This document shows positions 1 through 36,826 of a stretch of DNA of 64,000 nucleotides, piece after piece. Each line of letters opens with the position of its first letter. Position 1 is the stretch's first letter. Source of the DNA: a virus (lineage: Duplodnaviria > Heunggongvirae > Uroviricota > Caudoviricetes); the IMG/VR virus record IMGVR_UViG_3300035670_007376, positions 18,905 to 82,904 of that record; one strand, written 5' to 3'. The notes under the pieces are model-generated. The model searched no databases and had not been told where the DNA came from. It worked only from the letters and a program-made list of their open reading frames with translations. Position numbers and translations under genes: made by a program.

Positions 1-894
1 CGTTCTGTTGACATTAAAAAACATGAGTTCTTAGAGGAATCGGAATTTTGTAATGAATTCCACCAAGGTGATTTAAGAGACCCTAAATTTGTTCTAAATG
101 TTATGTTTTTAAAAACGGGAGAACCCTTTGATGAAGTATATCAATTAGCGGCAGATATGGGTGGTGCGGGTTATATAAATACCGGCGAAAACGACGCGGA
201 AGTTATGCACAATTCGACACTAATTAATTTGAATGTTCTTGACAGTTGTATTAGAACTGGTGTTAAGAAGGTATTCTATTCTTCTACCGCTTGTGTTTAT
301 CCTGAACATAATCAAATGGATGAAAATGAACCAAATTGTGAGGAATCGACAGTATATCCAGCACATCCTGATTCCAATTATGGGTGGGAAAAATTATATG
401 GTGAAAGATTATACATAGCCTATAATAAAAATTATGGAATCGATGTTAAAATTGCTAGATATCACAATATATTTGGACCGTATGGAACGTATGATGGTGG
501 AAAAGAAAAGGTACCGGCTGCATTATGTAGAAAAGTCTCAGAATGTTTAGATGGTGGTGAAATCGAGGTTTGGGGTGACGGATTACAAAGTAGAAGTTTT
601 TTATATATTGACGAATGTATTGAGGGGACAATAAGATTAATGAATTCAGAATTTAGTGGTCCTGTTAATATCGGTAGTGAAGAAATGGTCTCAATAAATT
701 CATTGGCGAATTATATAATTGATATAAGTGGTAAAATAATACAAATAAAAAATATTAAAGGACCACAAGGTGTTAGAGGTAGAAACAGTCATAATAAATT
801 GATAGAAGAAAAATTGGGATGGAAACCAAATAAACCATTGTATGAGGGATTAATAAAAACATACAATTGGATTAATAGTAAAGTTAAAATATAG
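1..894 (+). CDS. gme: GDP-mannose 3,5-epimerase (extended SDR), 5'-truncated by the window edge
   Basis: Frame 1 is open from nt 1 with no upstream stop. The product aligns over its whole length with plant GME (CNEFHQGDLR, LAADMGGAGYI, YSSTACVYPEHNQ, YGWEKLYGERL, RYHNIFGP, VNIGSEEMVSINSLA, GPQGVRGRNSHN). The N-terminal GxxGxxG Rossmann motif lies off the window. Confidence 0.8.
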   Translation, partial: RSVDIKKHEFLEESEFCNEFHQGDLRDPKFVLNVMFLKTGEPFDEVYQLAADMGGAGYINTGENDAEVMHNSTLINLNVLDSCIRTGVKKVFYSSTACVYPEHNQMDENEPNCEESTVYPAHPDSNYGWEKLYGERLYIAYNKNYGIDVKIARYHNIFGPYGTYDGGKEKVPAALCRKVSECLDGGEIEVWGDGLQSRSFLYIDECIEGTIRLMNSEFSGPVNIGSEEMVSINSLANYIIDISGKIIQIKNIKGPQGVRGRNSHNKLIEEKLGWKPNKPLYEGLIKTYNWINSKVKI

Positions 895-2121
895 ATGAAA
901 TTCTTTAATATACTTTTCGATAGTACTGTTGTTGGCAATAAAGAGTTAATGACGAATACGTTGTCACCATATAATGTTGAAGAATTAAAGATGGTAGACA
1001 TTAACGGATTAAACGTTGAGAATGAACAAAATTATTACTCATTTACAATTACAGGACAATACCTCGAATCATTGGTTGCAACTTTAAATTGTTTACCAAT
1101 ACATCATCAAGTAAAGACATTGATGAGAGAACATGAAAACATATATTGGGTTTTAATGGCTGAACATGAATCGGATGCGGATAACATTGTCATGTTGATT
1201 GAAGAATATTGTAAAAAAGAATTATTGAATCCTAAACAAATCATTTTACTTAATGGTAATCAAAAAATTAAAAAATTGATTAGGGATTTGAATAGTGAAA
1301 TGAGGGGTCACACATCCAACAGGTTACCAAACGTAGCGGTAACTGGGATGAATAATTTTAAATACGAATTTAAAAAAGAAAAAGAATCTTTCTTTATGTG
1401 TTATAATAGAATGAATAAACCACATCGAATTGGTTTATTAGTTTTATTAAAAAGAGCGGGGTTTTTGGATGATATCGATTGGACACTGTTAAGGGCCAAC
1501 GAAATAAAACCAAATTACACAAATTCAGATGGTACAATTTCGATGAACTTATTGGATGTTAGAACAAAAGATACAAAAAAATATAGTGTGTTCACAATTG
1601 ATGATTTTAACGAACATCTAAATGAGATTGAATATTTTTATAACTTAGATTCCAAAAAGAGTAAATTTGAAACCGGATATAAAATTGATGAGCCGCCATT
1701 TTTTATTGACTTTTATAAGACATATGAAATGAATCCATATAGTCATTCATATGTGAACATTGTGACGGAAACAAATTATACCTCCAACGACGTTATCCAC
1801 ATAACAGAAAAATCTTTGATACCGTGTTATTATTCACAGATACCATTAATATTGGGTAACTACGAGCATAATAAATTTTTAAAAGAAAGATACGATTTGG
1901 ATTTGTTTGAAGACATTATCGATTATTCTTACGATAATGTGACAACACCTCGAGATAGGTTATTCATGTTCGTTGAAGAGGTAAAAAGAATCAATACCAT
2001 TAAAAACGATGTTATTGAATTCTACAAGAATAACCAAGAAAGATTTGAACAAAATAAGAGAAAGATAATAAACATATTAGAAGATAAAACTGACTATAAT
2101 TTTTTTAAAACGTTAATATAA
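895..2121 (+). CDS. hypothetical protein (glycan island)
   Basis: 408-aa ORF tightly packed in the operon, with a TAATG junction to the next gene. No motif recognised. Confidence 0.5.
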   Translation: MKFFNILFDSTVVGNKELMTNTLSPYNVEELKMVDINGLNVENEQNYYSFTITGQYLESLVATLNCLPIHHQVKTLMREHENIYWVLMAEHESDADNIVMLIEEYCKKELLNPKQIILLNGNQKIKKLIRDLNSEMRGHTSNRLPNVAVTGMNNFKYEFKKEKESFFMCYNRMNKPHRIGLLVLLKRAGFLDDIDWTLLRANEIKPNYTNSDGTISMNLLDVRTKDTKKYSVFTIDDFNEHLNEIEYFYNLDSKKSKFETGYKIDEPPFFIDFYKTYEMNPYSHSYVNIVTETNYTSNDVIHITEKSLIPCYYSQIPLILGNYEHNKFLKERYDLDLFEDIIDYSYDNVTTPRDRLFMFVEEVKRINTIKNDVIEFYKNNQERFEQNKRKIINILEDKTDYNFFKTLI

Positions 2122-2648
2122 TGACATATAAAGATTCACTAACAAGTGTAATGACTAAATTAGGTGAAAGAGAAGATACAGTATTCATCGGACAACAAAT
2201 TCTATTCCCTGGTAATCCAATGAGCTCTACATTAATTAATGTCCCTAAAGAAAAAATGATAGAGGTTCCGGTTATGGAAGATACTCAAATGGGAATGTCA
2301 TTGGGGATGTCAATGAATGATAAATTTGTGGTTACGTTTTATCCGAGATGGGATTTTTTAATTTGTGCAACTAATCAACTTGTAAATCATGTTGACAAAT
2401 TAAAATTAATGAGTAATAACGAATGGTCATCCAATATGATTATTAGAGTCGGTAAAGGTTCAGATGACCCAATAGACCCAGGACACCAACATAAGGGTAA
2501 TTACTTTGAAGAATTCAAATCTCTTTGTAAGAACATAACGTTTCATGACCTTAAAACTAAAGAGGATGTTGATACCGCATATGAAACTGCAATTAATATG
2601 GGCGGTATACATGTTATTGTAGAATACCCACAAAATTATAATTTATAA
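2121..2648 (+). CDS. stand-alone transketolase-like pyrimidine-binding (Pyr) domain protein (E1-beta-like)
   Basis: Aligns with the N-terminal Pyr domain of pyruvate dehydrogenase E1 beta/transketolase (EDTVFIGQ..., EVPVMEDTQMGMSLGMSMNDKFVVTFYPRWDFLICATNQLVNHVDKL, GHQHKGNYFEEFKS...GGIHVIVE). The C-terminal domain is absent. Confidence 0.55.
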   Translation: MTYKDSLTSVMTKLGEREDTVFIGQQILFPGNPMSSTLINVPKEKMIEVPVMEDTQMGMSLGMSMNDKFVVTFYPRWDFLICATNQLVNHVDKLKLMSNNEWSSNMIIRVGKGSDDPIDPGHQHKGNYFEEFKSLCKNITFHDLKTKEDVDTAYETAINMGGIHVIVEYPQNYNL

Positions 2649-2649
2649 T

Positions 2650-3699: not shown

Positions 3700-3707
3700 T
3701 TATTAGT

Positions 3708-5336
3708 ATGTACGTAATTGGAATATCATCATATTATCACGATTCTTCTGCTTGTTTATTTGAAAACGGTAAACTGGTATTTGCTTGTGAAGAAGAGAAA
3801 TTTACAGGAATAAAACATGACAGTTCATTTCCAATTGAAACTTTAAAATACATTTTTGAACACTATAAAATAACAAAATCAGATATTGAATGTGTTTGTT
3901 ATTATGAGGACCCGAAACTAAGATTTAACAGAGCTAAATCGTTTCTTACGTCATTGTTGAATAACGTTAAGGTATGGTATAATCTAAGAAAAATTAGTAA
4001 AAAAATATACTACACCCCACATCACATCTCACATATGATGTATTCATATGCATCGTCGAATTTTAAGGAATCGTTAGTGGTATCGGTTGATGGGGTTGGT
4101 GAAACATCAACTGTTTCAATTGGAAAGGGTATTGACGGTCAATTAACACAAATTAAAACAATTGAATACCCACATTCATTGGGATTATTTTATTCCGCGA
4201 TGACTTCATTTTTAGGGTTCAAACCAAACGAAGGTGAATATAAAGTAATGGGTTTGGCATCATATGGTGACCCATCTGTTTTTAGGGAGGAGGTTTCAGA
4301 ACTAATTAAATTTGAAAATGGTGAAGTTATATGTAACATGGATTATTTTTCTTGGGACAGTTCTAATATGACAATGTTTAACCATAAATTAGAAGAACAT
4401 TTAAATGTTGAACCTCGATTCACTAAGAGCGGATTAGAACCTTTTCATAAAAATTTAGCGGCATCTGTACAAGAAAGATACGAAGAAGTTTTATTTGATT
4501 TATTGAACTATTCAAAAACACTATATAATTCAGAAAATCTTTGTTTAGGTGGTGGATGTGCTTACAACGGAAGGGCGAATGGTAAAATTGTCGATAATAA
4601 GATGTTTAAGAAATTGTGGGTACCACCTGCACCTTCGGATGCGGGAAACGCAATCGGAAGTTGTCTATATTATCTATGGAAAGAAAAGGGTGTTAGAAAA
4701 AGATTACACACTAACCCATTTTTAGGTCCACACTTTAGTTCAAAGGAAATTGAATCGTCATTAGAAAAATACAAAATACTAATACATTACGAACATTCAA
4801 CTAGAGAAAATGTATTAAAGAAAACTGCAAAACATATTAAAAACGGTTTAGTGATTGGTTGGTTCCAAGACAGAATTGAATTTGGTGCGAGAGCTTTAGG
4901 TAATAGGTCAATTTTAGCCGACCCAACTGTTCCTGATATGAAAGATAGAATTAATCGAGTAATAAAGAAAAGAGAAGGTTTTAGACCCTTTGCACCAATG
5001 GTTGCATATGAAAGTCAACATGTGTATTTTAAATCGAAAGAATATGTTCCATATATGAACCAGGTGGTGGAAGTTGTGGAAGAATACAGAGATAAATTAG
5101 TTGCCGTAACTCATGTGGATAACACCGCAAGAATACAATCAGTAACACCGTTTAACCCAATCTATTCTTTGATTAAAAAATTTGAAGAAATTTCGGGTTA
5201 CCCAATACTTTTAAACACATCCTTTAATGTAAAAGATAAAACGATGGTACTAACCCCTGAAGACGCAATAATAACATTTTTAGATACTGAAATGGATGTT
5301 TTAGTATTGGGAAATTATATGGTTTATAAAAAATAA
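3708..5336 (+). CDS. NodU/CmcH-family O-carbamoyltransferase
   Basis: N-terminus MYVIGISSYYHDSSACLFENGKLVFACEEEKFTGIKHDSSFP is the carbamoyltransferase signature. Length 542 aa is typical of the family. Confidence 0.8.
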   Translation: MYVIGISSYYHDSSACLFENGKLVFACEEEKFTGIKHDSSFPIETLKYIFEHYKITKSDIECVCYYEDPKLRFNRAKSFLTSLLNNVKVWYNLRKISKKIYYTPHHISHMMYSYASSNFKESLVVSVDGVGETSTVSIGKGIDGQLTQIKTIEYPHSLGLFYSAMTSFLGFKPNEGEYKVMGLASYGDPSVFREEVSELIKFENGEVICNMDYFSWDSSNMTMFNHKLEEHLNVEPRFTKSGLEPFHKNLAASVQERYEEVLFDLLNYSKTLYNSENLCLGGGCAYNGRANGKIVDNKMFKKLWVPPAPSDAGNAIGSCLYYLWKEKGVRKRLHTNPFLGPHFSSKEIESSLEKYKILIHYEHSTRENVLKKTAKHIKNGLVIGWFQDRIEFGARALGNRSILADPTVPDMKDRINRVIKKREGFRPFAPMVAYESQHVYFKSKEYVPYMNQVVEVVEEYRDKLVAVTHVDNTARIQSVTPFNPIYSLIKKFEEISGYPILLNTSFNVKDKTMVLTPEDAIITFLDTEMDVLVLGNYMVYKK

Positions 5337-5463: not shown

Positions 5464-6831
5464 ATGGTTTTTTTAACGTTTTCAATTGGTGATGATTCTT
5501 ACCATGATTTTGCAACCCAAACAGTTAACTCTGCAATAAATCAAGGGTATGATACATTTGTATTAACAGACAAACCTGATTTATACCCGAATTCAAAAAC
5601 ACTACTTTATGAAAAAGAAAAATTTTCATATCACGATAAATTGGATGCTGTTGAGTGGGTTTATAGTATGGGTTACAAACAAATACTTTATTTGGATGCC
5701 GACATTATAGTCAATGATATTGTATTTTTTAATGACGTTAAAAAAATTGAGTTTAATGATGGAATCAATTATACGAGAAGTGGTATACCTAAAGATTTAG
5801 AATCACACCTAAACGAAAAACACTTAAGTAATTACCGTACAAAATTAGACGAAAACTTTAAGTTAAATTATTCCGAAATCCCATCAATATTCGAAGATAT
5901 TTTCGTTTTCAATTTTGAAAATGTGGACCCGTCACAATTCTTTAAGTATTTTAAAAAATTAAGGGATTTAAAACACGAATCAGACATCCAAACTGATAAC
6001 CAAAGATATGGAGACCAAGAAGGTTATTCAATATCAATAGCGTCTAAATTATCTTTGATGCCTTGTCAAATTTCTGACAGTTTAAGAACTTTATCATCCA
6101 CTCATTTATTAGCGAGTAACTACACATATGATGGAATCATTAAATCGATTATGTCTGAAGTTAGTTTTATATTTCCATATAGAAAAGATAGTATTGAAAG
6201 AGAACAAAATTTCTCAACATGTCTAAATTACTATAAAAGATATTTTAATGATTCCGAATTTATAATATCGGAACAAGGTGAAAAAAGGACTATCTTTCAC
6301 CATTCAGGATACAATTATACATTCGAAGAATTACCGTTACCACATAACCAATCGAGAACAATCAATCAAGGAATTAGATTAAGTGATAAAAAAATTGTTT
6401 GTGTGATTGATTCGGACATAATTTTAATAAATCACTACAACATCTATTTGGCGGTAAAAGAAATTTTCCAAAATAAGATTGATTATTGTTTACCATATCT
6501 TGAATGTGTTGACTTACCCGGATTTATGTTTAGAGGTCCATGGGGTGGTTATTGTATTGGTGGAATTTATGTTGTAGATAGAAATAAATTTATTGAGATT
6601 GGATTAAATGACGAAGAATATCGTGGTTGGGGAAGGGAGGATGATGATAGACACCAAAGAATGTTAGACAACGGTTTTAGATTTAAAAGACATCACGGTA
6701 ACATTGTTCATATGTACCATCCACCACAAGAAAACATAAAGGAAAGTGCGGAAAAGAACCTAATTAGATTAAGAAATTATACAGATGGTAACGGTAATAC
6801 TAACGAAGTACAAAAGGACAAACTTATTTGA
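5464..6831 (+). CDS. two-domain glycosyltransferase: N-terminal GT-A-like domain (YLDADIIV) plus C-terminal beta-1,4-galactosyltransferase-like domain
   Basis: C-terminal FRGPWGGYCIGGIYVVDRNKFIEIGLNDEEYRGWGREDDDRHQRM matches the beta4GalT motif (WGWGGEDDD). The N-terminal domain is paralogous to ORF 9723..10346. Confidence 0.6.
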   Translation: MVFLTFSIGDDSYHDFATQTVNSAINQGYDTFVLTDKPDLYPNSKTLLYEKEKFSYHDKLDAVEWVYSMGYKQILYLDADIIVNDIVFFNDVKKIEFNDGINYTRSGIPKDLESHLNEKHLSNYRTKLDENFKLNYSEIPSIFEDIFVFNFENVDPSQFFKYFKKLRDLKHESDIQTDNQRYGDQEGYSISIASKLSLMPCQISDSLRTLSSTHLLASNYTYDGIIKSIMSEVSFIFPYRKDSIEREQNFSTCLNYYKRYFNDSEFIISEQGEKRTIFHHSGYNYTFEELPLPHNQSRTINQGIRLSDKKIVCVIDSDIILINHYNIYLAVKEIFQNKIDYCLPYLECVDLPGFMFRGPWGGYCIGGIYVVDRNKFIEIGLNDEEYRGWGREDDDRHQRMLDNGFRFKRHHGNIVHMYHPPQENIKESAEKNLIRLRNYTDGNGNTNEVQKDKLI

Positions 6832-7456
6832 TGAACAATATCAATCTGTTTTAAATCAAACACTTAAACCCACCGAAATTTTAGTGTGTGATAATACAAC
6901 CCAAAACACAGGTGTTTGGGGAAGATTTTCATTGGCACTATTGGCAAAAAATGATTTTGTATGTGTTATCGATGATGACACCATACCTGGTAATTCATGG
7001 TTACAAAACTGTGTCAATTGTTTCCAAGAAAAAGAAGGACTATATGGTACCTGTGGTTATCTTTTTAATTCGAACACACATTACCAAGATAACTACACCA
7101 GACACGGATGGTGTAACCCAAATGAAGAAATAAAAGAAGTCGACTACGTCGTACACAATTGGTTCTTTAAAAAGGAATGGTTAAAATATTATTGGTCGGA
7201 AATAAGAGATGAAAAATATTGGTTGTGTGGTGAAGACATGAACTTTTCATATCAACTACAAAAACAAGGAATTAAAACATTTGTTCCCCCACATCCAAAA
7301 GATAATGGTAACCGATGGGGTAGTATAAAAGGTTGGCAATATGGAATAGACTCCGTTTCTCTATATGAAACAAACCCCGAAAATTTTAGACAGAATATGT
7401 TTGATTTTTTCGATGAACAAATAAAAAAAGGATGGAAATTATTATATGAATCATAA
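6785..7456 (+). CDS. GT2-family glycosyltransferase
   Basis: VTVILTKYKRTNLFDEQYQSVLNQTLKPTEILVCDNTT matches the GT2 N-terminal motif and DDD follows. The ATG start overlaps the upstream gene by 47 nt in another frame. Confidence 0.55.
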   Translation: MVTVILTKYKRTNLFDEQYQSVLNQTLKPTEILVCDNTTQNTGVWGRFSLALLAKNDFVCVIDDDTIPGNSWLQNCVNCFQEKEGLYGTCGYLFNSNTHYQDNYTRHGWCNPNEEIKEVDYVVHNWFFKKEWLKYYWSEIRDEKYWLCGEDMNFSYQLQKQGIKTFVPPHPKDNGNRWGSIKGWQYGIDSVSLYETNPENFRQNMFDFFDEQIKKGWKLLYES

Positions 7457-8135: not shown

Positions 8136-9003
8136 GGAAATATATTTTCTTAGTTTTTACACCACAGGTGACGGTGCACCGGACTTAACCCATGTTGCAA
8201 ATGAAGTTAAAGAGAAACTATCAACGTACTTCACCGAAATGTTCATTTATAACAAAGAAACTTTAAAACAATTACCAAACAGCGAAGATATTTGTAATGT
8301 TTTCGAAGAACCTACAGATATGACATATTTTCCATATGCACATAAAATGGGTTACTATGATTGGAAAGCATTTTTGATTGATTACACACTAAAGAATATA
8401 CCCGAAAATTCAATCTTGTTATATCACGATATTAATTTTGAAAAGTACCCAAATTATTGGCAAAGTGATTGGGAAAACATATATGATGTTTGTGATGGGT
8501 TTTTAAAAGAAAATGAAAGTGATATATGGGCGAAGTTTGAGTTACATGATTTTTATCTTAAAAAATCAATGAAAACGTACGCAATCGATAAAGTTTTTAC
8601 AGACCCAATACAAAATGATGTGGTTAAAAATTCACTACAAATAAATTCTAGTCAAGTTGTATTAAAAAATACAAGTTTCTCTAAAGAATTTGCAAAAGAT
8701 TGGTTATATTTTACTAGAGATTGGGATATTACACATCCATCACCAAATCCAAATCGTCACCCCGAATCGGAAATAATCGGGTGTCCTGACCAAGATTCGA
8801 TGCAATGTGCACTATACCAAAGAATATTTGACGGTAGGTTGAAACCCACATTCCCAACATATGGATTACATTGGAGGGTGATGAGAACTGATACTATTGT
8901 GTTTAATATGAAGGGTATGGAATGTAAAACCGGTCCATATCGTTTAGAAAATAAAGCGGTTATAAATTATTTTAAAAATAAAACAAATGAGGAAGTTTTC
9001 TGA
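8128..9003 (+). CDS. hypothetical protein
   Basis: 291-aa ORF packed in the operon. Confidence 0.45.
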   Translation: MGKEIYFLSFYTTGDGAPDLTHVANEVKEKLSTYFTEMFIYNKETLKQLPNSEDICNVFEEPTDMTYFPYAHKMGYYDWKAFLIDYTLKNIPENSILLYHDINFEKYPNYWQSDWENIYDVCDGFLKENESDIWAKFELHDFYLKKSMKTYAIDKVFTDPIQNDVVKNSLQINSSQVVLKNTSFSKEFAKDWLYFTRDWDITHPSPNPNRHPESEIIGCPDQDSMQCALYQRIFDGRLKPTFPTYGLHWRVMRTDTIVFNMKGMECKTGPYRLENKAVINYFKNKTNEEVF

Positions 9004-11896: not shown

Positions 11897-12334
11897 ATGA
11901 TATATTGGTTTACAGGTCAACCTGGTGCAGGAAAAACAACATTAGCTAAACACTTAGTAACGTTCCTTTCAAATACGGGTAAGGTCATTCACATTGACGG
12001 AGACGATTTGAGAGACATTTTCCAAAATAAGGATTATTCGGAAAATGGTCGACGTAAAAACATAGAAAGGGCTCAAGATATTGCCCAATTTATGAATGAA
12101 AAGGGTTACGATGTTGTGGTATCTTTAGTGTCACCATATAAAGACCAAAGAGAAGAATTAAAATTAAAAACATCGGTAATTGAAATATTTGTTCATACCT
12201 CAGAAGAACGAGGTCGTGAAAATTTTCATGTCATTAACTACGAAAAACCTGAAGAAAATTTTGTGGAAATGGATACCACAGAAAATTCTGATGTTGAATC
12301 GTTTATTGAATTAATTAGTAAAATAGATTTATGA
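11897..12334 (+). CDS. cysC: adenylyl-sulfate (APS) kinase, short form
   Basis: P-loop GQPGAGKTT, then HIDGDDLRD (CysC LDGDNVR). NGRRKNIERAQDIAQF...VVVSLVSPYKDQRE...IEIFVHTS follow the CysC layout. Confidence 0.65.
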   Translation: MIYWFTGQPGAGKTTLAKHLVTFLSNTGKVIHIDGDDLRDIFQNKDYSENGRRKNIERAQDIAQFMNEKGYDVVVSLVSPYKDQREELKLKTSVIEIFVHTSEERGRENFHVINYEKPEENFVEMDTTENSDVESFIELISKIDL

Positions 12335-12711: not shown

Positions 12712-12716
12712 TCTAT

Positions 12717-26728: not shown

Positions 26729-26793
26729 GTCCTAGATAATTAGATACTTAAATACAATTGACGAGTATTTATATGGTATAATATAATATCTAG

Positions 26794-28830: not shown

Positions 28831-28833
28831 AAG

Positions 28834-28862
28834 AAAGGGACTCAATTGAGTCCCTTTTTTAT
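28834..28862. terminator. bidirectional rho-independent terminator shared by convergent genes
   Basis: Perfect palindrome AAAGGGACTCAA|TTGAGTCCCTTT followed by TTTTTT on + and a T-rich tract on -. The minus-gene stop codon lies within the stem. Confidence 0.8.
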
Positions 28863-29957
28863 TTCTATTAACATGTTACCAATTTGATACTCACCGGGTT
28901 CATAATAGGGAATAGACAAACGAAGCTTATGAAGATTTATTATATCTTCATTTGTAAACGGCTCTACTTCTATTATAACGACATCTACCGTATCTGTAAG
29001 GGTAAATTTAGACCTTAAATCATAACGTGTATTCTTTTGTTCGTTGTTAATGTAATCCTCAGGAATCTCACCTAAATCGATTTTATCAAAAAATGGTTCA
29101 ACATCAAATAATTTATTTTTACTACGAGTTTTCAATCCCATTGTAAATGTTTTATATGTAAAAACCGAGTCATCCCAATAATGTAATTCATTAAATGCGT
29201 GTATTGGTACACCCCATTTACGAACAAAGTTTCGATTTGATGATAATTCTATTTTTAATCTATCATTTTTATAATCATCACCAAATCGTGATGTCTGCGA
29301 AACAAAATGATAGGTTATAGCGGAATCACATGTTTTCAATTCGTATCCTTTTAGTTTCGCACGAATTAAAAAATCATCATCCTCACAAAATAGTGGTGCA
29401 AATGTAAAACCATCAAAATAACCCACATCCTCAAATAATTTTTTATATCCACTCATAAAAAATACCGCACCATTATATAGTTTGTCACTTTCTTTTTGTT
29501 GATTCACATAGTTGTTAAAATCATTATAATTAAAATCTCCAAATCCCGAACCTAAATCCATTATAACTTTACCAGGTCTTTTATGACCTGCAAAAATTGG
29601 AGGTTCGATTGTGGTATAAGACAATAACATATTCGGTTCCAACAACCTTTCAATAGACTCTAAAAATCCCTCACCAATAACCATATCGTTATGGATAAGA
29701 ACTAATTTTTCAGTATCAACTAATTTAATTGCGGTGTTATATGTGTCAGAAAATGTTAACCTATCATCATCATGAAATATTGTTAAATAATCGTCAGTTT
29801 CTGACATCTCCATTAACCACTCTTTTGTTCCGTCACTTGAACCACCACTACTAATAACAAACGGAACTTCTGGATACAATTCCCTCACCCGACGATAACA
29901 ATTTTTAGTTAAATCTAACTTGTTTAAAACTGCCAAAACAAATGAAATATTTCTCAT
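28842..29957 (-). CDS. GT2-family glycosyltransferase
   Basis: ISFVLAVLNKLDLTKNCYRRVRELYPEVPFVISSGGSSDGTKEWL matches the GT2 N-terminus. Confidence 0.55.
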   Translation of the reverse strand: MRNISFVLAVLNKLDLTKNCYRRVRELYPEVPFVISSGGSSDGTKEWLMEMSETDDYLTIFHDDDRLTFSDTYNTAIKLVDTEKLVLIHNDMVIGEGFLESIERLLEPNMLLSYTTIEPPIFAGHKRPGKVIMDLGSGFGDFNYNDFNNYVNQQKESDKLYNGAVFFMSGYKKLFEDVGYFDGFTFAPLFCEDDDFLIRAKLKGYELKTCDSAITYHFVSQTSRFGDDYKNDRLKIELSSNRNFVRKWGVPIHAFNELHYWDDSVFTYKTFTMGLKTRSKNKLFDVEPFFDKIDLGEIPEDYINNEQKNTRYDLRSKFTLTDTVDVVIIEVEPFTNEDIINLHKLRLSIPYYEPGEYQIGNMLIEIKKGLN

Positions 29958-30517
29958 CTTAATGAATTGTATATCGATAAAACTTTATCGATAAATTTTT
30001 TATTTTGTGACTTATCATAACACTCAATTGCAAAATAACCGTCAGCTTCATATGTTGGTAACATCCATCTCGATTCACCAATAATATCAACAGACACTAA
30101 AAAATTATGACTATCTATTTTTTGTAATTTAACTTGGTCCCCTTTTAACCTTATTATGCCGTTTTTTAATGATTGTTTAAAATGTATAAAATCATTATCT
30201 AAATTTTTAACATTTTCCCAGAAATCTTTGTGCATCGAAGTATCATCATCATTAAAATAAACATACCCTTCTTTCACTAAATCTAATGCGTAATTTCTTT
30301 GGGAATTACCAAATTTACTTTTACTATTTCTATGTAAATACGTTTCACAATTTTCAGGTATAAGTTCTTTTTCGGGTAACTCATCTAAATCAAATACAAC
30401 AATCCATCGATAATTTTCTTTAGGAATGTTAATACTTTCACTTATTTTATGTAGATTTTTCGGTCTACTACACGGGGTTATAATATTGATATACATGTTT
30501 AAACTCTTTTTATCCAA
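29954..30517 (-). CDS. GT-A-fold glycosyltransferase-like protein
   Basis: MYINIITPCSRPKNLHKISESI...WIVVFD resembles the GT2/GT-A N-terminal core. Confidence 0.4.
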   Translation of the reverse strand: MDKKSLNMYINIITPCSRPKNLHKISESINIPKENYRWIVVFDLDELPEKELIPENCETYLHRNSKSKFGNSQRNYALDLVKEGYVYFNDDDTSMHKDFWENVKNLDNDFIHFKQSLKNGIIRLKGDQVKLQKIDSHNFLVSVDIIGESRWMLPTYEADGYFAIECYDKSQNKKFIDKVLSIYNSLR

Positions 30518-31044
30518 CTGGTGTCTTTGAAAATTTTATCTGGACCACCTAACTCCTCATGAACAACTTTAATAACACCCTCCCAATTTTTGTGGTAATC
30601 GTGACCACCAATAAACCCTGAGTTTGGTATCAATTTAATATAATTTTTTAAATCTTTTTTTACTTGTTCGTATGTGTGTAATCCGTCTATGTAAATAAAA
30701 TCAAACGTTTCATTTTGTAACTCTAAAAAAGCATCATCCGAAGTCTTTCTTATGTGTTTAATATTTTTTAATTCATTAATTTTTAAAACGAATAATTCAT
30801 ACACATTATCGAAGTCCATATAACTGCAGGCTGGGTCATCTAAATCGTAATCATTTAAAAATGGGTCAATAGATAAAACACTTTTAAAATGTTTTGAAAA
30901 TATTTCAGTGGACTCACCAGCATATGAACCAATCTCAATCATACACATATTTTTTGTGTCGGAATATTGGTTAATATAATCAATTAAATCCATAAGACCA
31001 TCACTATATATTTGGTCTCTCATTTTATATAATAAATTTTTCAT
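30499..31044 (-). CDS. class I SAM-dependent O-methyltransferase (TylF/MycF-like)
   Basis: MIEIGSYAGESTEIFSKHFKSVLSIDP. Confidence 0.5.
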   Translation of the reverse strand: MKNLLYKMRDQIYSDGLMDLIDYINQYSDTKNMCMIEIGSYAGESTEIFSKHFKSVLSIDPFLNDYDLDDPACSYMDFDNVYELFVLKINELKNIKHIRKTSDDAFLELQNETFDFIYIDGLHTYEQVKKDLKNYIKLIPNSGFIGGHDYHKNWEGVIKVVHEELGGPDKIFKDTSWIKRV

Positions 31045-31046
31045 AA

Positions 31047-31628
31047 CTAATTGTGAACGTAAAGAGGTTTTTCAATGTATCTAATACTTCCATTAGGAAA
31101 TCTTTTCAAGTACTCCTCAACAAATAAACCATCACCATATACTTTTGTGATATCTATTTTCATTTGTTGACCAAATTCTCTTCTAACCATAAAATTACCG
31201 ATGTCGATTCTACCGATATGTGGTGCACATTTTATAAGATGGTATTGATACTGTGTCCAATTGTGTACCATATCACAATAAACAAAATGTACATTATTAG
31301 GTGAACCAGCATTTAAAAAATGGTCAACAAAAACAGGTGTGTAGTAATTATCATCACCACTCATAACAACCCATTCTTCGGTTGCATTTTCTAATCCGTA
31401 ATTTCTTGGAGTGTGACCCCAATCATTGTGTCTTTTTTCTAATGTTGTAAATTTAATCCTCTCATCACCCCCAAAATATTTTACAACTTTATCATAACCT
31501 TCTTCTTGTGGACCATCAGCAATAACATGTATTTTCCATTTATCACTTCTTTGTGAATAGATGGAATTTATTACACACATTAAATTATTTGGTCTGTTAT
31601 ATGTTGGAATGATAAACTCTATTTTCAT
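31047..31628 (-). CDS. GT2-family glycosyltransferase
   Basis: MKIEFIIPTYNRPNNLMCVINSIYSQRSDKWKIHVIADG. Confidence 0.7.
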   Translation of the reverse strand: MKIEFIIPTYNRPNNLMCVINSIYSQRSDKWKIHVIADGPQEEGYDKVVKYFGGDERIKFTTLEKRHNDWGHTPRNYGLENATEEWVVMSGDDNYYTPVFVDHFLNAGSPNNVHFVYCDMVHNWTQYQYHLIKCAPHIGRIDIGNFMVRREFGQQMKIDITKVYGDGLFVEEYLKRFPNGSIRYIEKPLYVHN

Positions 31629-31639
31629 AATTTTAAACT

Positions 31640-31873: not shown

Positions 31874-31876
31874 AAT

Positions 31877-32869
31877 TTATTTTTTCCAAAAACTATATAT
31901 TCCTTTATCTAATTCGTATGAATCCCATACGAATCTCTCTCTTTTTGGTTGAGTCTTTGCCCATTCCCACATTTTAGTTAGTCCATCATGTAATGATGTT
32001 TTATCTGAATAACCTAACAACTCAACAGACTTTTGCCAAGTCGGATAAGCGTTTTTAACCTCATGACGTTGTTCTTTATAAACAACATCTGAACCCGATA
32101 TAACATCTCTTAAAACTTTATTGGCTTCGTTAATTGTGTAATGTTTAGTTCCACCTAAATTTATAATCTCTTTAGAACATTCAGGTAGGTATGATGATTT
32201 CCATAACCCCTCTAAACAATCGTCAATATAACTAAAAGCTCTTTTTTGTTCACCATCACCAAAAATTGTCATCGGTTCCCCGTTCATATGTTGATACATC
32301 CAAATACCCAATACGTTTCGATACTTGTCCCAAATGTTTTGTTTTATACCGTATACGTTGTGTGGTCGAATGATACACCAATCTAAACCGTGTTGTTCAC
32401 CGGCAACTCTAATGTCCATTTCACAACCATATTTTGCAATACCATACGGGTCAATTGGTGCTGGTAGTTGAGACTCATCAAAGATATCACCATTACCGTG
32501 ACCATAAACCGCCATTGTTGATGTAAAGATTAATCTTTTAACGTCATGTTTAATACATTGATTGATTACTCTCGCAGTTGCCACTAAATTATTTTGATAA
32601 TTGTAACTCCTAATAAATGGTGATAAACCTTCTGCAGCGTAAGCTGCCATATGATAGACATAATCAAATTTATTCACCTCAAAACAATTCTCAATTGGAT
32701 GGGTAACTAAATTCATTTGCCAAAACTCTACTTTAGGGTGGACATTTTCTTTATAACCACCACTTAAATCATCAATACCCACAACGTGTACGTCAGGATA
32801 ATTCTCAATAATATAATCTGCTAGTCTTGAGCCTAAAAGACCCGCAACACCTGTAATTAAAATCTTCAT
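31877..32869 (-). CDS. NAD-dependent sugar epimerase/dehydratase (extended SDR)
   Basis: MKILITGVAGLLGSRLADYI (GxxGxxG), YGIAKYGCE (YxxxK), HNVYG. Confidence 0.8.
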   Translation of the reverse strand: MKILITGVAGLLGSRLADYIIENYPDVHVVGIDDLSGGYKENVHPKVEFWQMNLVTHPIENCFEVNKFDYVYHMAAYAAEGLSPFIRSYNYQNNLVATARVINQCIKHDVKRLIFTSTMAVYGHGNGDIFDESQLPAPIDPYGIAKYGCEMDIRVAGEQHGLDWCIIRPHNVYGIKQNIWDKYRNVLGIWMYQHMNGEPMTIFGDGEQKRAFSYIDDCLEGLWKSSYLPECSKEIINLGGTKHYTINEANKVLRDVISGSDVVYKEQRHEVKNAYPTWQKSVELLGYSDKTSLHDGLTKMWEWAKTQPKRERFVWDSYELDKGIYSFWKK

Positions 32870-33513
32870 ATTGTATTATAAAATTTATTTTGTTTTTCTT
32901 GTTTAGTTATTGTTTTATGATGTTGGATACAATAAACTTCATCGTAAGGTAATGTTGAAAATATCTGTCCACCAACAATTCGTTCGTGTACTTTACCATA
33001 CCAACTCATCCCCTTTCTATAAATTCGACCTTGGTAGTCAGGAAAATTAATCCATCCTTTTTCGTTGACTTTCCAATTCCAATTTTTAATATGTGACTCA
33101 GTGATACCATTAACAGTATTAATCCTTGGAACAAAAATTAAATCAACCTTAGGGTTCATTAGTAGTATTTCGTGTAGATTCCCAATCATATACTCATCGA
33201 CCATTTCATCCGCATCTATTTGATAGATGTAATCTCCCGTACAATATTCACTAAGTTTATTTTTCCAATCTGCGAAATTATTGTTCCACCAAAGACCTCT
33301 CCATGTTTGAACGTTTGGTTTGATATTAAATGGTAATAGATATTCTAAAACTTCAGAACTACCATTTTTTTCATCATATAAAATGACAATTTCATCTTCA
33401 ATTCTTTTATGTTCTAAAAGAAATGGGAGTAATTTTTTTATCTCCTCTAATTCGTTACATACTGTTATAGCAAAACTTATTTTCATAATGTTTCTCTTCC
33501 GATATTCATCCAA
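32866..33513 (-). CDS. GT2-like glycosyltransferase
   Basis: MKISFAITVCNELEEIKKLLPFLLEH...EIVILYDEKNGSSEVLEYL, with DADE further on. Confidence 0.5.
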   Translation of the reverse strand: MDEYRKRNIMKISFAITVCNELEEIKKLLPFLLEHKRIEDEIVILYDEKNGSSEVLEYLLPFNIKPNVQTWRGLWWNNNFADWKNKLSEYCTGDYIYQIDADEMVDEYMIGNLHEILLMNPKVDLIFVPRINTVNGITESHIKNWNWKVNEKGWINFPDYQGRIYRKGMSWYGKVHERIVGGQIFSTLPYDEVYCIQHHKTITKQEKQNKFYNTI

Positions 33514-33758: not shown

Positions 33759-34011
33759 CTTGTCTCCCCCTAGCAAATATTTTAAATGTTCTGTTGTTAT
33801 GATTAAATGTAATGTTACCGTCCGTAGTTGGTGCGACAGTAATTGTTAAGTTCTCAGTACCCGTACCAAAAACAACCGGTTCATCATCATCAAATTGAAA
33901 ACAATATTCATTGTTAAGATTTTGTTGTTGAGGTCTTAGTGATAAAACCTGCGTTGGTTCCAATCTTAAAAAATAATTATTTTCATTGCCTCTCAGAAAC
34001 TTAAAGTCCAT
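33751..34011 (-). CDS. small protein with N-terminal FKFLRG motif (tandem paralog)
   Basis: MDFKFLRGNENNYF... The ATG overlaps the upstream stop as TAATG. Confidence 0.45.
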   Translation of the reverse strand: MDFKFLRGNENNYFLRLEPTQVLSLRPQQQNLNNEYCFQFDDDEPVVFGTGTENLTITVAPTTDGNITFNHNNRTFKIFARGRQDG

Positions 34012-35267
34012 TACTTAATTTTTGTTAATTTCGGAAGAACTAATTTTTGTTCTTTTGGTTTATTTAAAAAGGGATTTAAAATTATCTTAAATGATTCCGT
34101 CATTTTATCTAAGGTATATTTCTCAGAGTTAATCTCTCTTAATTTTTCCGACCTATTTTTAAAATCTTCATAATCTCTTTTAACTATTTTCATAACCTCA
34201 ACAAATTCATTGTAATTGGCTGTGAACCATTTAGAACCTTTAATGATAAAATTATCAATCACACTATCATGTACTTCAGTAAGTTTACCACCAATCATAA
34301 CCGCCTTGTCCATTGGTAAAAAGTCCTTATGACCTGACCAGTTAGATGCAATTATCGGTTTACCGGTCATTGAAAATTCTAATAACGGTCTACCAAACCC
34401 TTCACCTTTAGTTATTGATACCATTGATTTAACTTTTGGATGATTATACAAATCATTCATTTCATTATCAGTCAAATCACCAAACAATAAGTAAATTGAT
34501 GGAGGAGTTTGTGTAACACTATAAGAGATTGTCTCAATTTTTTTTCTTAATTCCTCTCTTTGTTTTACTGAGAAATGTGCTGATGATGTTTTAAGTATTA
34601 AACCTGGTTTGTCCACCTCATCTTTAAATGATTCAACAAAACATTTTATTAACATCCCAACATCCTTTCTATCTTGACCCATATCACCTTTTAACCAATG
34701 ACCAACAAAAAGATAGTTAAAATCTTCCTTTAAACCTAATTCTAGGTCGTTATATTTGTTATTAAAAATATTCGTATCAACACCTTCAAACAAAACTTCT
34801 ACAGGTTTTTCTATTCTATGTTGTTTAACTAATTTACCCGTAGTCTTTTCATTTTCATTATAAACGGTTTGTAATAGAACATCTTTCGAAAAATTAGATG
34901 TTGTGATTACCAAATCCATTCTATTACACCCATCAATCCAATCTTTTGGAGCTATTGTCGTTTCGATACCGGCAGTTATTCCAATATTAAACTTACCCAT
35001 TCTTTGAAATTCATTTGGTACGGTGACTTGAACGTAAATGTCAGGTTGTTTTGGTATTAACCCTGTAACGATATTCCGCTCAATCCATTGATGGAACGGA
35101 TTTCCATTTTCCAATGCCGTTGTTGGTGTGGACCCCCATGGGCAACTATCGATATTAATATCAAATAAGTCCATTTTATATAATGACTCTAACAAATCTC
35201 TTGAATGACCACCATATCCACTTCTTGTTTTCACTGGTCCTCTAAATAATAAAAATGGTTTACTCAT
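34011..35267 (-). CDS. GT4-family (GT-B) glycosyltransferase
   Basis: GEGFGRPLLEFSMTGKPIIASNWSGHKDFL is the GT4 EX7E region. Confidence 0.7.
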   Translation of the reverse strand: MSKPFLLFRGPVKTRSGYGGHSRDLLESLYKMDLFDINIDSCPWGSTPTTALENGNPFHQWIERNIVTGLIPKQPDIYVQVTVPNEFQRMGKFNIGITAGIETTIAPKDWIDGCNRMDLVITTSNFSKDVLLQTVYNENEKTTGKLVKQHRIEKPVEVLFEGVDTNIFNNKYNDLELGLKEDFNYLFVGHWLKGDMGQDRKDVGMLIKCFVESFKDEVDKPGLILKTSSAHFSVKQREELRKKIETISYSVTQTPPSIYLLFGDLTDNEMNDLYNHPKVKSMVSITKGEGFGRPLLEFSMTGKPIIASNWSGHKDFLPMDKAVMIGGKLTEVHDSVIDNFIIKGSKWFTANYNEFVEVMKIVKRDYEDFKNRSEKLREINSEKYTLDKMTESFKIILNPFLNKPKEQKLVLPKLTKIK

Positions 35268-36625
35268 ATTATTTTATATAAATTAAATCTCTTCTTCGGT
35301 TTAAAGTTTTTTATTGAATTCTCAATACCCTCAACCATTTTATTACACATAATTTCACTCGATAGATTTTCTAACATGAATTCTCTACCTAATAAACCTT
35401 TTTCTTTTCTTTTCTCTTTACCAAACTCATACATTTCATAAATTGCCTTAGCAACATCATCATGGTTAACCTTGTCTTCATAAATGTATGGTGTTGCGGG
35501 TGAACCATTTAAAGTATTTGTCAAAGACCAAACAGGTACAACCCATTCACCTTCTTGTGTTAAATGCATTGACTTACTTTTATTATGTAATGACCCAATT
35601 GTTATGTAATCTTCAGCTGAAAAGTTAAAACCACATTGGTCTTGTAATCCACCTGTTACGTTAACAATTATTGGTGTACCCGACATTAACGATTCTGCGG
35701 TAGTTAATCCGAATCCTTCGTTGCTAGCAATATTAATAGTACAATCAACAGAGTTATAAATTTCATTTAATTTAGGTTGCTCAAACTTATTATTGGTGAT
35801 TTTAACATCGTACTCAACACATAAATTGTTAATGACTTCCGGTAAGTCTGTACCGTTATTATCAATTGCTGCTGTGTGCATTAATAAAAGACATTTACTT
35901 GATTGTTCTTTTGTTAATTTATCACAAAACAACTTATAAGAAAGAATCACATCACTAGTCTGTTTTCTCCTTATGTTTCTATTATTATAGAAAATAACAA
36001 AATCATATTCTTTATCACCATGAATCATCTTAGTGATATCATTTGAAACCGATTCCAACGGTTTAAAAATGTTAGAATTAATTCCATGTGGAACGTAACT
36101 TATCTGCCAATCTTTTAATGGTTCGTAAGTTGATTTGTCATCTAACTTTCCTACACGATTAACAATACCATATGTTTGTTTAGAAATACAACCAATCCAA
36201 TCACAACTCTCATAAAAATCTCTATTATATTTTGGGTCTGGTAGGTTATCCCATATGTGGTAATATAAGATTGGTACTTGTTGTCTAATTTCGTGTTCAT
36301 TGTCATATAACCATTGCCAATAATGTGGGTCGGTAAAATGTAGAATGGCGTCAGGTTTTTCTTCCTTAATTAATTTACGTAATGTTTGGATGTCACCATA
36401 ACCATTATTCGGAATCACTTTAACCTTAGCATCCTTCACCCCCGTTCTTTTAGATATATCCTCATCCAAGCTAATGATTGTACCAAATTCAGGATGTTTA
36501 ATCGCCGCACCTAATTGGACCCAATCAAACTTATCAACAGTACCCATGACAATCTCTCTAGACATCGTTGATATACCTGATGTCATTCTTAAATCATCTG
36601 ATAAAAGTAATATCTTTTTTTTCAT
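35264..36625 (-). CDS. GT4-family (GT-B) glycosyltransferase
   Basis: NEGFGLTTAESLMSGTPIIVNVTGGLQDQ. Confidence 0.7.
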   Translation of the reverse strand: MKKKILLLSDDLRMTSGISTMSREIVMGTVDKFDWVQLGAAIKHPEFGTIISLDEDISKRTGVKDAKVKVIPNNGYGDIQTLRKLIKEEKPDAILHFTDPHYWQWLYDNEHEIRQQVPILYYHIWDNLPDPKYNRDFYESCDWIGCISKQTYGIVNRVGKLDDKSTYEPLKDWQISYVPHGINSNIFKPLESVSNDITKMIHGDKEYDFVIFYNNRNIRRKQTSDVILSYKLFCDKLTKEQSSKCLLLMHTAAIDNNGTDLPEVINNLCVEYDVKITNNKFEQPKLNEIYNSVDCTINIASNEGFGLTTAESLMSGTPIIVNVTGGLQDQCGFNFSAEDYITIGSLHNKSKSMHLTQEGEWVVPVWSLTNTLNGSPATPYIYEDKVNHDDVAKAIYEMYEFGKEKRKEKGLLGREFMLENLSSEIMCNKMVEGIENSIKNFKPKKRFNLYKII

Positions 36626-36628
36626 TAA

Positions 36629-36826
36629 TTAAAACTTTGAACCACTCGATGCTAAACCATTATGATTATCAATCATATTCCTATAGTTTTCGTCTTTATT
36701 GTATAAGTCTAATGACCTATTAACCAATTTTTGTAAATTGATTGAACCTTCGATTGACTTAACTTTAAATTTTCTATAAACATCATCTAAAATGTTTACA
36801 CTCGTTAATTTTGTTTCTGCTTTCAT
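36629..36826 (-). CDS. small hypothetical protein, first gene of the minus-strand operon
   Basis: 65-aa ORF separated by 3 nt from the next gene. Confidence 0.4.
   Translation of the reverse strand: MKAETKLTSVNILDDVYRKFKVKSIEGSINLQKLVNRSLDLYNKDENYRNMIDNHNGLASSGSKF

Follow-up and report, generated by a model that had tools for sequence, protein, structure and literature searches.

Comparison with known glycosylation systems

The enzymes TibC and AAH of the family of bacterial autotransporter heptosyltransferases (BAHT) are cytoplasmic and hyper-heptosylate serines in the passenger domains of TibA and AIDA-I (PMC4358343). Here we describe a homologous enzyme encoded on a stretch of 64,000 nucleotides of DNA from a very large phage of freshwater type (IMG/VR record IMGVR_UViG_3300035670_007376, positions 18,905 to 82,904; hereafter the window), where its gene directly precedes that of a collagen-like tail fibre and lies within a large island of glycan-related genes. 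We consider it likely, judging from the sequence, that the conserved core of this island is a self-glycosylation module for the phage fibre. The likeness to TibC and AAH consists of homology over the beta-barrel, the catalytic domain of GT-B type (GT, glycosyltransferase) and the iron finger, with conservation of the key residues, and of the location of the gene for a cytoplasmic enzyme beside that of a hyper-serine-rich repetitive substrate, which is here a putative one. Unlike TibC and AAH, the enzyme described here is phage-encoded and fused to an N-terminal GT-A-fold domain and a beta-sandwich (in some relatives additionally to a methyltransferase, and in other phages to a GT4 domain), its putative substrate, encoded next to it, is a fibre with collagen-like G-[S/T]-S repeats instead of an autotransporter beta-helix, and Arg286 of TibC is not conserved, which makes the donor uncertain.

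The collagen regions of BclA carry O-glycans (PMC12357932). The Bacillus exosporium resembles the present locus in its collagen-like Gly-X-Thr/Ser stalks, which form triple helices and are O-glycosylated there on the hydroxyls of the repeats, in the glycan genes located nearby, in methylated unusual sugars and in a polymorphic number of repeats. It differs in that other glycosyltransferases are used (no BAHT), that the spore surface and not the virion is involved, and that BclA has a C1q/TNF-like C-terminus instead of S74. Among viruses, L230 of Mimivirus glycosylates viral collagen-like proteins (PMC9614988), and glycosylation of capsid and tail-tube proteins has been described for mycobacteriophages (Freeman et al. 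2023, as cited in PMC12619734). Mimivirus also has glycan clusters for its fibrils, and chloroviruses glycosylate their capsids. Mimivirus, the chloroviruses and the mycobacteriophages bring their own cytoplasmic glycosyltransferases, sugar-nucleotide enzymes and methyltransferases for structural proteins, as would be the case here. However, L230 acts through a hydroxylysine-Glc linkage and the sites in the mycobacteriophages are at the C-termini of the capsid and tail-tube proteins; none of these systems starts with a BAHT-type enzyme, and the present island is far larger than the phage examples.

The serine-rich-repeat adhesins of Gram-positive bacteria (GtfA/B plus GT8 enzymes such as GlyE) work alike in the mode proposed below, whereas here a GtfB-like partner and an accessory Sec system are lacking and the BAHT domain is the presumed initiator. 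The 'LPS gene clusters' (LPS, lipopolysaccharide) of the cyanomyoviruses P-SSM2, S-SM2 and S-SSM7 (PMC3037559) are likewise big blocks of glycan genes with unknown target in low-GC aquatic myoviruses, and have the halogenase, carbamoyltransferase and 2-oxoglutarate (2OG) oxygenase families in common with the island. They contain no BAHT homologue and no link to a fibre has been proposed for them, whereas in the present case both an acceptor and an initiating enzyme can be named. In view of these clusters, and of virus-encoded virion glycosylation as such, the claim in the initial annotation that a system of this kind had not been described needs narrowing: what stands is that we found no paper in which a BAHT or heptosyltransferase is linked with phages or with collagen-like proteins.

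For 15-20 years large glycan islands have been known in big aquatic phages without an assigned target, and one paper reportedly raised the question whether they have a function or are mere 'stuffer DNA'. The naming of a specific enzyme and acceptor makes the proposal directly testable, including in a cultured phage. If it is true, the BAHT family reaches beyond virulence autotransporters to a new class of substrates and to viruses, and a second, mechanistically distinct route to glycosylated viral collagen exists besides Mimivirus L230. The fibres of abundant uncultured freshwater jumbo phages would then carry glycan brushes that vary and may be sulfated and methylated, with consequences for the recognition of hosts, for adhesion to particles or mucus, and for the resistance of the phages to proteases and grazers.

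A BAHT-type enzyme and its putative acceptor

The enzyme is a protein of 710 amino acids (aa). Its residues 365-703 match TibC (PDB 4RAP, 4RB4) with an E-value of 4e-51, and residues 341-708 pass the NCBIfam equivalog TIGR04414, 'autotransporter strand-loop-strand O-heptosyltransferase', with 266.3 bits versus a cutoff of 200 (profile positions 7-373 out of 374). Models of LPS heptosyltransferases reach at most 28 bits. The initial assignment of the gene to GT9 was right as to the type of domain, but by TIGR04414 the enzyme is of the TibC/AAH type and not an LPS heptosyltransferase. Residues ~1-220 are predicted, with structural support, to adopt a GT-A fold.

The functional residues of TibC (PMC4358343) were mapped onto 49 phage homologues of the 710-aa protein. 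The catalytic base Asp110 corresponds to D435 and is an aspartate in all 49. The beta-phosphate contacts Thr226 and Lys230 are represented by T554 and K558 (T in 46 and K in 48 homologues) and the heptose contact Trp305 by W629 (W in 47). All four cysteines of the iron finger (1Fe-0S; Cys339, Cys342, Cys358 and Cys370 in TibC, C664, C667, C681 and C693 here) are found in each of the 46 homologues that could be aligned in this region. The catalytic and contact residues are also kept in the outgroup phages and in Methylobacter. At the position that governs heptose stereoselectivity the phage homologues carry Ser, like AAH, and the thumb-tip residues F265/V266 of TibC are Y/M in the 710-aa protein. 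By these comparisons the enzyme class (BAHT) is secure, whereas the donor sugar is not.

The fibre gene starts 65 nt after the gene of the 710-aa protein, on the same strand. The fibre of 678 aa has two uninterrupted Gly-X-Y blocks, of 60 triplets (aa 98-277) and 39 triplets (aa 404-520), flanked by non-repetitive N-terminal and middle domains. Position X is Ser in 64 and Thr in 35 of these 99 triplets, and position Y is Ser in 94. In total 281 residues (41%) are Ser or Thr, the highest share in the window, where all other proteins stay at or below 23%; the initial figure of ~600 Ser/Thr hydroxyls was too high. The earlier label of a Ser/Thr-repeat fibre is correct in that the protein is a Ser/Thr-rich fibre, but it is more precisely a collagen-like Gly-X-Y protein with a Peptidase_S74 domain. 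This domain (2.9e-16, residues 583-640) contains the motif YGSDSRLKEN at residue 583, the Ser...Lys of which we take to be the cleavage dyad, as in endosialidase chaperone domains. The protein matches many PHROG tail-fibre families, and its virion role rests on this homology.

The DNA that encodes the fibre repeats consists of imperfect 9-nt repeats in which the Ser codons vary, which implies that selection acts on the protein. In a near-identical strain (L001, 12162-14153), with flanking genes that are 99-100% identical, the fibre has 663 aa; either fibre length is polymorphic within the population or the assemblies collapsed repeats. Public gene calls are on the wrong strand across the collagen repeats of this strain (L001, 12158-13330, minus strand) and of Microcystis phage Mel-JY01 (PP395634, L085; 739-2298 on the minus strand versus 635-3052 on the plus strand). 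Because gene callers often choose the wrong strand across these repeats, the fibres and their association with the enzymes systematically escape notice.

Conservation of the core and recurrence in unrelated genomes

Two further genes complete the core. The first encodes a 905-aa tri-domain enzyme, in which residues 380-720 are predicted to form a GT8-like GT-A domain, again with structural support, and the second encodes a methyltransferase of 219 aa. With the 905-aa protein, 78 viral loci were retrieved from IMG/VR (48-93% identity; longest contig 335 kb), and identical genes were found on four metagenome contigs. For the 710-aa protein the databases contain 398 homologues, the longest contig measuring 339 kb; many of these homologues had already been named as TIGR04414 by the Joint Genome Institute (JGI). 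Homologues of the 219-aa methyltransferase occur in 60 related loci, and in some relatives the BAHT protein carries a methyltransferase fused at its N-terminus.

The order of the 905-aa gene, the 219-aa methyltransferase gene, the 710-aa gene and the fibre gene is conserved. Among the 40 non-redundant related viral loci with enough flank, 35 have a fibre or G-[ST]-x collagen-like gene at most 3.5 kb downstream of the BAHT gene, so that the comparison with related phages, which had been put forward as a check, shows the block of core and fibre to recur. In three other loci, all distant, giant G-[ST]-x collagen-like ORFs (open reading frames) lie just upstream of the 905-aa gene, the two largest with 467 and 583 triplets. 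Among the distant loci L080 (4-8993) has a collagen-like ORF of more than 2100 aa that runs off the locus and contains 583 G-[TS]-[SN] triplets, and a second ORF of 870 aa in which both G-S-S and G-P-T/G-P-Q triplets occur; the fibres formed by these proteins would be exceptionally long.

In GenBank, only four phage records contain a BAHT homologue. Microcystis phage Mel-JY01 (190 kb), the one cultured carrier that was found, encodes a 1226-aa fusion in which a GT4 domain and a BAHT are joined with a homologue of the N-terminal portion of the 710-aa protein; just upstream of the fusion gene are an ORF of ~800 aa, in which 149 G-[ST]-x triplets occur, and the gene of a Ser-rich 'structural protein' (3065-4591 in PP395634). 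A megaphage of 735 kb carries a GT4-BAHT fusion 3.7 kb from a G-T-S/G-S-S collagen-like ORF. The presence of GT4 and BAHT in one polypeptide in these two phages argues for functional coupling. A scan of 185,579 species-representative genomes yielded only two relatives, both of which match the BAHT part alone, and gave no indication of the host. In Methylobacter luteus (NZ_KE386569; L083, 7001-9203) a secreted 287-aa G-T-A/G-T-S protein with a signal peptide is encoded directly upstream of a stand-alone BAHT, and in a bacterial metagenome-assembled genome (MAG) an ORF with (GSS)11 lies 1 kb from a frameshifted BAHT. The BAHT is paired with a G-[ST]-x repeat in four of the five contexts outside the phage family. 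The Methylobacter pairing suggests that secreted collagen-like proteins of bacteria may also be BAHT substrates.

These contexts bear on the alternative that the BAHT acts on another protein, be it a host autotransporter or adhesin or a different virion protein (e.g. a capsid decoration protein), in which case its adjacency to the fibre gene would reflect the clustering of late genes. In line with this, all characterised BAHTs act on autotransporters (PMC4358343). Moreover, virion genes other than collagen-like ones adjoin the module in distant relatives, namely tail-tube-like and virion-structural genes in L080 and LamG-type fibre genes, and in Mel-JY01 it is the gene of the Ser-rich, non-collagen 'structural protein' that sits between the collagen-like ORF and the enzyme gene. 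However, in the Methylobacter and MAG loci a G-[ST]-x repeat gene is found nearby and no autotransporter gene was seen among the ORFs, and the association with such repeats holds in four of the five independent contexts outside the family. No autotransporter family was detected among the scanned ORFs of the window. We regard a target other than the fibre as improbable.

Absence of export machinery nearby and probable viral origin

The initial annotation had noted that no Wzx/Wzy/Wzz or ABC exporter seemed to be encoded, and a hydropathy scan agrees. None of the real genes of the island encodes a transmembrane segment and no protein in the window has more than three; the only island ORF with three, on the minus strand at 26790-27974, is read out of frame across the collagen repeats and is thus an artefact. 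Across the 1.35 Mb of 82 related loci, ORFs with at least four transmembrane segments occur only as artefacts of the same kind, out of frame in collagen repeats. Since no polytopic membrane protein is encoded in the window or in these loci, Wzx, Wzy, WaaL, an ABC permease and a priming phosphoglycosyltransferase can be ruled out there.

This result is of importance for the possibility that the island remodels the surface of the host, by altering LPS, capsule or S-layer glycans (e.g. in superinfection exclusion), and that the fibre gene is merely embedded in it. Such a function has been proposed for the 'LPS gene clusters' of large cyanomyoviruses. The genes for GT2, GT4 and short-chain dehydrogenase/reductase (SDR) proteins are generic polysaccharide genes, host flippases or ligases could be borrowed, and large LPS-type gene clusters are found in P-SSM2, S-SM2 and S-SSM7 (PMC3037559). 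Yet a priming enzyme, flippase, polymerase, ligase and ABC transporter are lacking from the window and from the related loci alike, the most conserved glycosyltransferase matches a protein O-glycosyltransferase equivalog and not an LPS enzyme, and the module tracks collagen-like genes in unrelated genomes. Remodelling of the host surface has, in our estimate, a small chance of being the function of the island. The earlier suggestion of synthesis in the cytoplasm and attachment to the embedded fibre is backed by the TIGR04414 match, the conserved adjacency and the lack of membrane-bound polysaccharide machinery.

No capsid, portal or terminase genes were found among the scanned ORFs of the window. 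Support for the viral assignment is indirect and comes from the relatives in IMG/VR, the tail-fibre homology, the virion-type neighbours in L080, a Gp23 fragment in the related locus L088, and Mel-JY01, in which the homologous genes are arranged close to that of the terminase. The lineage may be that of the 'moraphages', Bacteroidota-associated phages of about 300 kb with four core orthogroups of GTs (PMC12619734); this identity is plausible rather than established.

Proposed function of the core

In the mechanism that we propose, the collagen-like fibre would be made in the host cytoplasm during infection, where its S74 chaperone would trimerise it and then be cleaved off. The BAHT domain would move a sugar from a nucleotide sugar onto Ser (possibly Thr) of the repeats, as TibC and AAH do on autotransporter passengers; by homology the donor would be ADP-heptose, which is unproven here. 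The GT-A domain fused to the BAHT, and the GT4 and GT8-like domains of the 905-aa enzyme, would extend this stub, and the FkbM and Methyltransf_24 enzymes would O-methylate or cap the glycan. In at least some strains the variable flanking GT2, GT4 and SDR enzymes, and possibly the sulfotransferases together with the kinase for adenosine 5'-phosphosulfate (APS), could diversify it. The outcome would be a mucin-like or bottle-brush fibre. The identities of the domains, the conserved catalytic residues, the gene order with its conservation and the lack of membrane machinery are direct observations. In this scheme we infer the acceptor, the donor sugar and the order of the steps, as well as whatever part sulfation, carbamoylation, halogenation or hydroxylation may play.

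Several observations weigh against such self-glycosylation of the fibre. The known BAHT substrates are beta-helical autotransporter repeats and not collagen-like triplets. Arg286 of TibC, which contacts N1 of adenine and is the basis of the specificity for ADP-sugars, is Ile610 in the 710-aa protein, and V, L, I or A in all 47 of the 49 family homologues that are alignable at this position. It is also replaced in most of the outgroups; only the homologue of the 735-kb megaphage keeps Arg. In addition, no heptose-pathway genes were found in the scan of the window. In view of both points the donor may not be ADP-heptose. As to the synteny, two of the 40 loci have no fibre nearby, the locus L019 keeps the fibre termini around a shaft that is non-collagen yet Ser/Thr-rich, and gene order within one phage family is partly inherited and hence partly non-independent evidence. 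The genome measures roughly 330 kb, of which the scan for export genes in the window covers 64 kb, and such genes may lie elsewhere. Outside the core, gene content is mosaic between relatives and most of the decoration genes are variable. Some of them are found in phages without the fibre module, and the cyanomyoviruses and pelagimyophages that carry the halogenase, the carbamoyltransferase and 2OG oxygenases have no BAHT homologue.

A more far-reaching proposal concerns a whole clade of BAHT-type enzymes, found in jumbo phages, the Microcystis phage, megaphages and some bacteria, that would be dedicated to Gly-Ser/Thr-X collagen-like proteins instead of autotransporters. Here the enzyme would prime a mucin-like O-glycan brush on the fibre, which the remaining genes of the island (36 kb or more) would extend, methylate, sulfate, carbamoylate and perhaps hydroxylate or halogenate, to yield a strain-variable anionic glycocalyx on a phage appendage. 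We put this forward tentatively and think it rather unlikely in its full extent.

Accessory genes of the island

At positions 1-36625 the island comprises 38 tightly packed ORFs in two convergent blocks, on the plus strand up to 28830 and on the minus strand from 28842 to 36625 (Table 1). The frame of the first gene is open from base 1, so that the island extends past the left edge of the window; the best NCBIfam match of its product is GDP-fucose synthase-like, far under the cutoff.

Table 1. Features of the glycan island and its four-gene core
Position	Strand	Product	Evidence
1..894	+	SDR sugar-nucleotide epimerase/reductase, 5'-truncated	Pfam Epimerase 2.5e-34, profile positions 64-240
3708..5336	+	NodU/CmcH-type O-carbamoyltransferase	Carbam_trans_N 2e-57, Carbam_trans_C 5e-62
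5464..6831	+	Glycosyltransferase with Glyco_transf_7C domain	Pfam
6785..7456	+	GT2	Pfam
8987..9730	+	2OG-Fe(II) oxygenase	2OG-FeII_Oxy_5 1e-10
11897..12334	+	APS kinase	Pfam APS_kinase 1.9e-19, 70.6 bits vs cutoff 21.1
12331..12711	+	126-aa HxGH nucleotidyltransferase	Weak NMNAT/cytidylyltransferase-family matches
12910..13392	+	2OG-Fe(II) oxygenase by paralogy	phmmer 4.8e-6 to product of 13392-13961
13392..13961	+	2OG-Fe(II) oxygenase	2OG-FeII_Oxy_3 8.8e-9
13925..15202	+	Flavin-dependent halogenase, Trp_halogenase family	298 bits
15204..15854	+	Weak 2OG oxygenase candidate	Pfam E=0.013
15854..16645	+	Sulfotransfer_2-like sulfotransferase	Family profile vs heparan-sulfate 2-O-sulfotransferase E=1e-4
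16714..18210	+	Conserved 498-aa protein, C-terminal Hint/intein-like domain and Cys-rich tail	Profile vs KlbA intein 2JMZ E=3e-5
18401..18967	+	2OG-Fe(II) oxygenase	2OG-FeII_Oxy_3 1.1e-8
18964..19479	+	Putative small sulfotransferase, marginal	PRxG(S/T) motif; PDB E ~0.1
19479..20126	+	Putative small sulfotransferase, marginal	PRxG(S/T) motif; PDB E ~0.1
20812..21195	+	SET-domain protein	Pfam SET 1.1e-7
21223..23940	+	Core gene 1: 905-aa tri-domain enzyme, GT4 (~1-380), predicted GT8-like retaining GT-A (~380-720), FkbM (~730-885)	
23937..24596	+	Core gene 2: class I S-adenosylmethionine (SAM) methyltransferase, Methyltransf_24-like, 219 aa	25.9 bits vs cutoff 26.3
24596..26728	+	Core gene 3: 710-aa protein, predicted GT-A fold (8-220), beta-sandwich (245-337), TibC/AAH-type BAHT (341-708)	
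26794..28830	+	Core gene 4: collagen-like G-[S/T]-S tail fibre, C-terminal Peptidase_S74, proposed acceptor	Collagen 5e-42, Peptidase_S74 3e-16
28842..29957	-	GT2	Pfam
29954..30517	-	Weak GT2	Pfam
30499..31044	-	Methyltransf_24 methyltransferase	Pfam
31047..31628	-	GT2	Pfam
31877..32869	-	SDR epimerase/dehydratase	Pfam
32866..33513	-	GT2	Pfam
34011..35267	-	Weak GT4-like glycosyltransferase	Pfam
35264..36625	-	GT4 glycosyltransferase	Pfam
39252..39884		GDSL esterase, just outside the island	Pfam

Searches of the window ORFs with Pfam, NCBIfam and PDB profiles placed ~30 domains, in 26 of the 38 island ORFs, in sugar-nucleotide, glycosyltransferase, methyl-, carbamoyl- or sulfotransferase, halogenase or 2OG-oxygenase families. 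These hidden Markov model searches corroborate most of the toolkit of ~40 glycan genes that had been proposed initially, including two SDR genes, the carbamoyltransferase, the APS kinase, the halogenase, the SET gene and the nearby GDSL esterase, all with Pfam matches. The three or four methyltransferases also stand, as the FkbM domain and two Methyltransf_24 proteins, one of which scores just under the cutoff. For the five GT2, three GT4, three sulfotransferase and five 2OG-oxygenase genes listed at the outset the picture is more varied: four GT2 and two GT4 are solid and one of each is weak, a single sulfotransferase (15854-16645) is supported and the other two are marginal, and three of the oxygenases are solid, the fourth is assigned by paralogy and the fifth is weak. 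The product of the latter (15204-15854) showed no similarity to the oxygenase of 8987-9730 in BLASTP. Pfam searches at E-values up to 10 gave nothing usable for ten island ORFs without assignment.

The APS kinase is short (145 aa) and scores under the NCBIfam equivalog cutoffs. Its stop codon is overlapped by the gene of the HxGH nucleotidyltransferase, and homologues of each are present in ~25 related loci. ATP sulfurylase was not detected in the window, where this nucleotidyltransferase is the sole candidate: it could be a minimal sulfate adenylyltransferase that completes the pathway to 3'-phosphoadenosine 5'-phosphosulfate (PAPS), or a sugar-1-phosphate adenylyltransferase that feeds the BAHT. 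None of the three proposed sulfotransferases has a Pfam match. The match of the 263-aa family (15854-16645) to heparan-sulfate 2-O-sulfotransferase (HS2ST) spans the region from the phosphosulfate-binding (PSB) motif to the His, and this family has no homologue in GenBank phages. For the families of 171 and 215 aa, which share an invariant PRxG(S/T) motif resembling the 5'-PSB, the top PDB matches are only to the sulfotransferases CurM and NodH.

The halogenase has its best phage relative in Pelagibacter phage HTVC008M (37%), followed by cyanomyoviruses, and it adjoins a 2OG oxygenase in HTVC008M and in many cyanomyoviruses. Homologues of the carbamoyltransferase occur in 148 GenBank phage records, mostly of cyanomyoviruses, and prnA, carbamoyltransferase and multiple 2OG oxygenases are known as sporadic cyanophage genes (PMC3037559). 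The typical tailoring enzymes of natural-product clusters include flavin halogenases, carbamoyltransferases, 2OG oxygenases and FkbM methyltransferases, and the island might accordingly make a glycosylated, halogenated small molecule instead of a protein-linked glycan. However, no scaffold enzyme for a polyketide (PKS), non-ribosomal peptide (NRPS), terpene or ribosomally synthesized, post-translationally modified peptide (RiPP) was found in the domain searches of the window, and the best-conserved enzyme is a protein glycosyltransferase. We consider a small-molecule product very improbable.

Prolyl or lysyl hydroxylation of the collagen repeats by the 2OG oxygenases was considered and judged unlikely for this fibre, because neither Pro nor Lys occurs at any X or Y position of the triplets (the whole fibre has 9 Pro and 13 Lys). 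In distant relatives whose collagen-like ORFs include G-P-T/G-P-Q triplets, such hydroxylation may take place.

The conservation of the accessory genes differs strongly between families. Homologues of the APS kinase, nucleotidyltransferase, oxygenase, sulfotransferase-like and 498-aa proteins are found in 19-45 loci each, those of the GT and epimerase genes on the minus strand in 0-25 loci per gene, and the SET gene is confined to near-identical strains. The related locus L088 (IMG 3300042391 contig of 335,630 bp, 470-22124) holds a variant of the island with an Asp/Arg hydroxylase, a radical SAM protein, Anp1-like, GT92 and DUF3431 proteins, a second, stand-alone BAHT of 376 aa and the Gp23-like fragment of 80 aa. 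In L088 accessory content turns over around a fixed core. The initial suggestion that all ~40 genes serve one glycan is not supported, and the flanks of the four-gene core are mosaic between relatives.

It could thus be that only the core, perhaps with some neighbouring glycosyltransferases, acts on the fibre and that the other genes are accessory cargo of a hypervariable region, with the halogenase, the 2OG oxygenases, the carbamoyltransferase, the SET protein and perhaps the sulfation genes directed at other targets, for instance metabolites of the host, proteins of host or phage, or nucleic acids. The mosaic content and the narrow distribution of the SET gene agree with this, as does the fact that the pair of halogenase and 2OG oxygenase, and the carbamoyltransferase, occur in many phages without BAHT. 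On the other hand, the accessory genes are tightly packed, co-oriented and often overlap glycan genes, sugars are the usual substrates of NodU-type carbamoyltransferases and of HS2ST-like sulfotransferases, and in many related loci homologues of the APS kinase, nucleotidyltransferase and sulfotransferase lie at most 10 kb from the core. We give this division of the island a nearly even chance; it refines the proposal that the core glycosylates the fibre and does not replace it.

The 498-aa protein, kept in 45 related loci, has an invariant His-Asn followed by Cys in its Hint/intein-like domain. Behind this domain follows a Cys-rich tail, CWCPWNYCGYYCNSWYCPSCSGGGIPKF, and the N-terminal part of the protein appears ATP-grasp-like by eye. 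Self-cleavage might release the Cys-rich peptide.

Organisation of the window and neighbouring genes

The G+C content is ~30% across the whole window, and no tRNA genes were found in its 64 kb. Between the convergent fibre and GT2 genes lies a bidirectional terminator-like hairpin (28831-28860) with a 13-bp stem and T-runs on both strands. Promoter-like sites showed no enrichment over shuffled sequence, and operon structure is therefore claimed only as far as gene spacing and the terminator hairpin show it. The best sigma-70-like match of a 10-kb scan (11/12) is located at 26758-26787, in the gap before the start codon of the fibre gene.

When 24 kb of the window were compared with GenBank phages by megablast, the only match was one of 160 bp in thymidylate synthase, which indicates that there is no close sequenced relative; tblastn with a PcfJ-like protein of 627 aa gave no match. 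The right-hand 27 kb encode, among others, a thymidylate synthase, DNA methyltransferases, PcfJ-like proteins and an M23/lysozyme-like protein. The thymidylate synthase (39881-41068) has 395 aa, of which only ~280 positions of the PHROG profile are aligned, suggesting an insertion of ~100 aa. Three genes encode DNA methyltransferases (37157-37852, 45558-46538 and 56871-57935), two adjacent ones PcfJ-like proteins (42159-45471) and another a GHKL-type ATPase (HATPase_c_3; 58027-59568); these may have anti-restriction or defence-related functions. Finally, in a protein of 483 aa (52427-53878) an M23-type metallopeptidase is joined to an endolysin-like region at the C-terminus; the protein would serve either in lysis or, associated with the virion, as a hydrolase of the cell wall.

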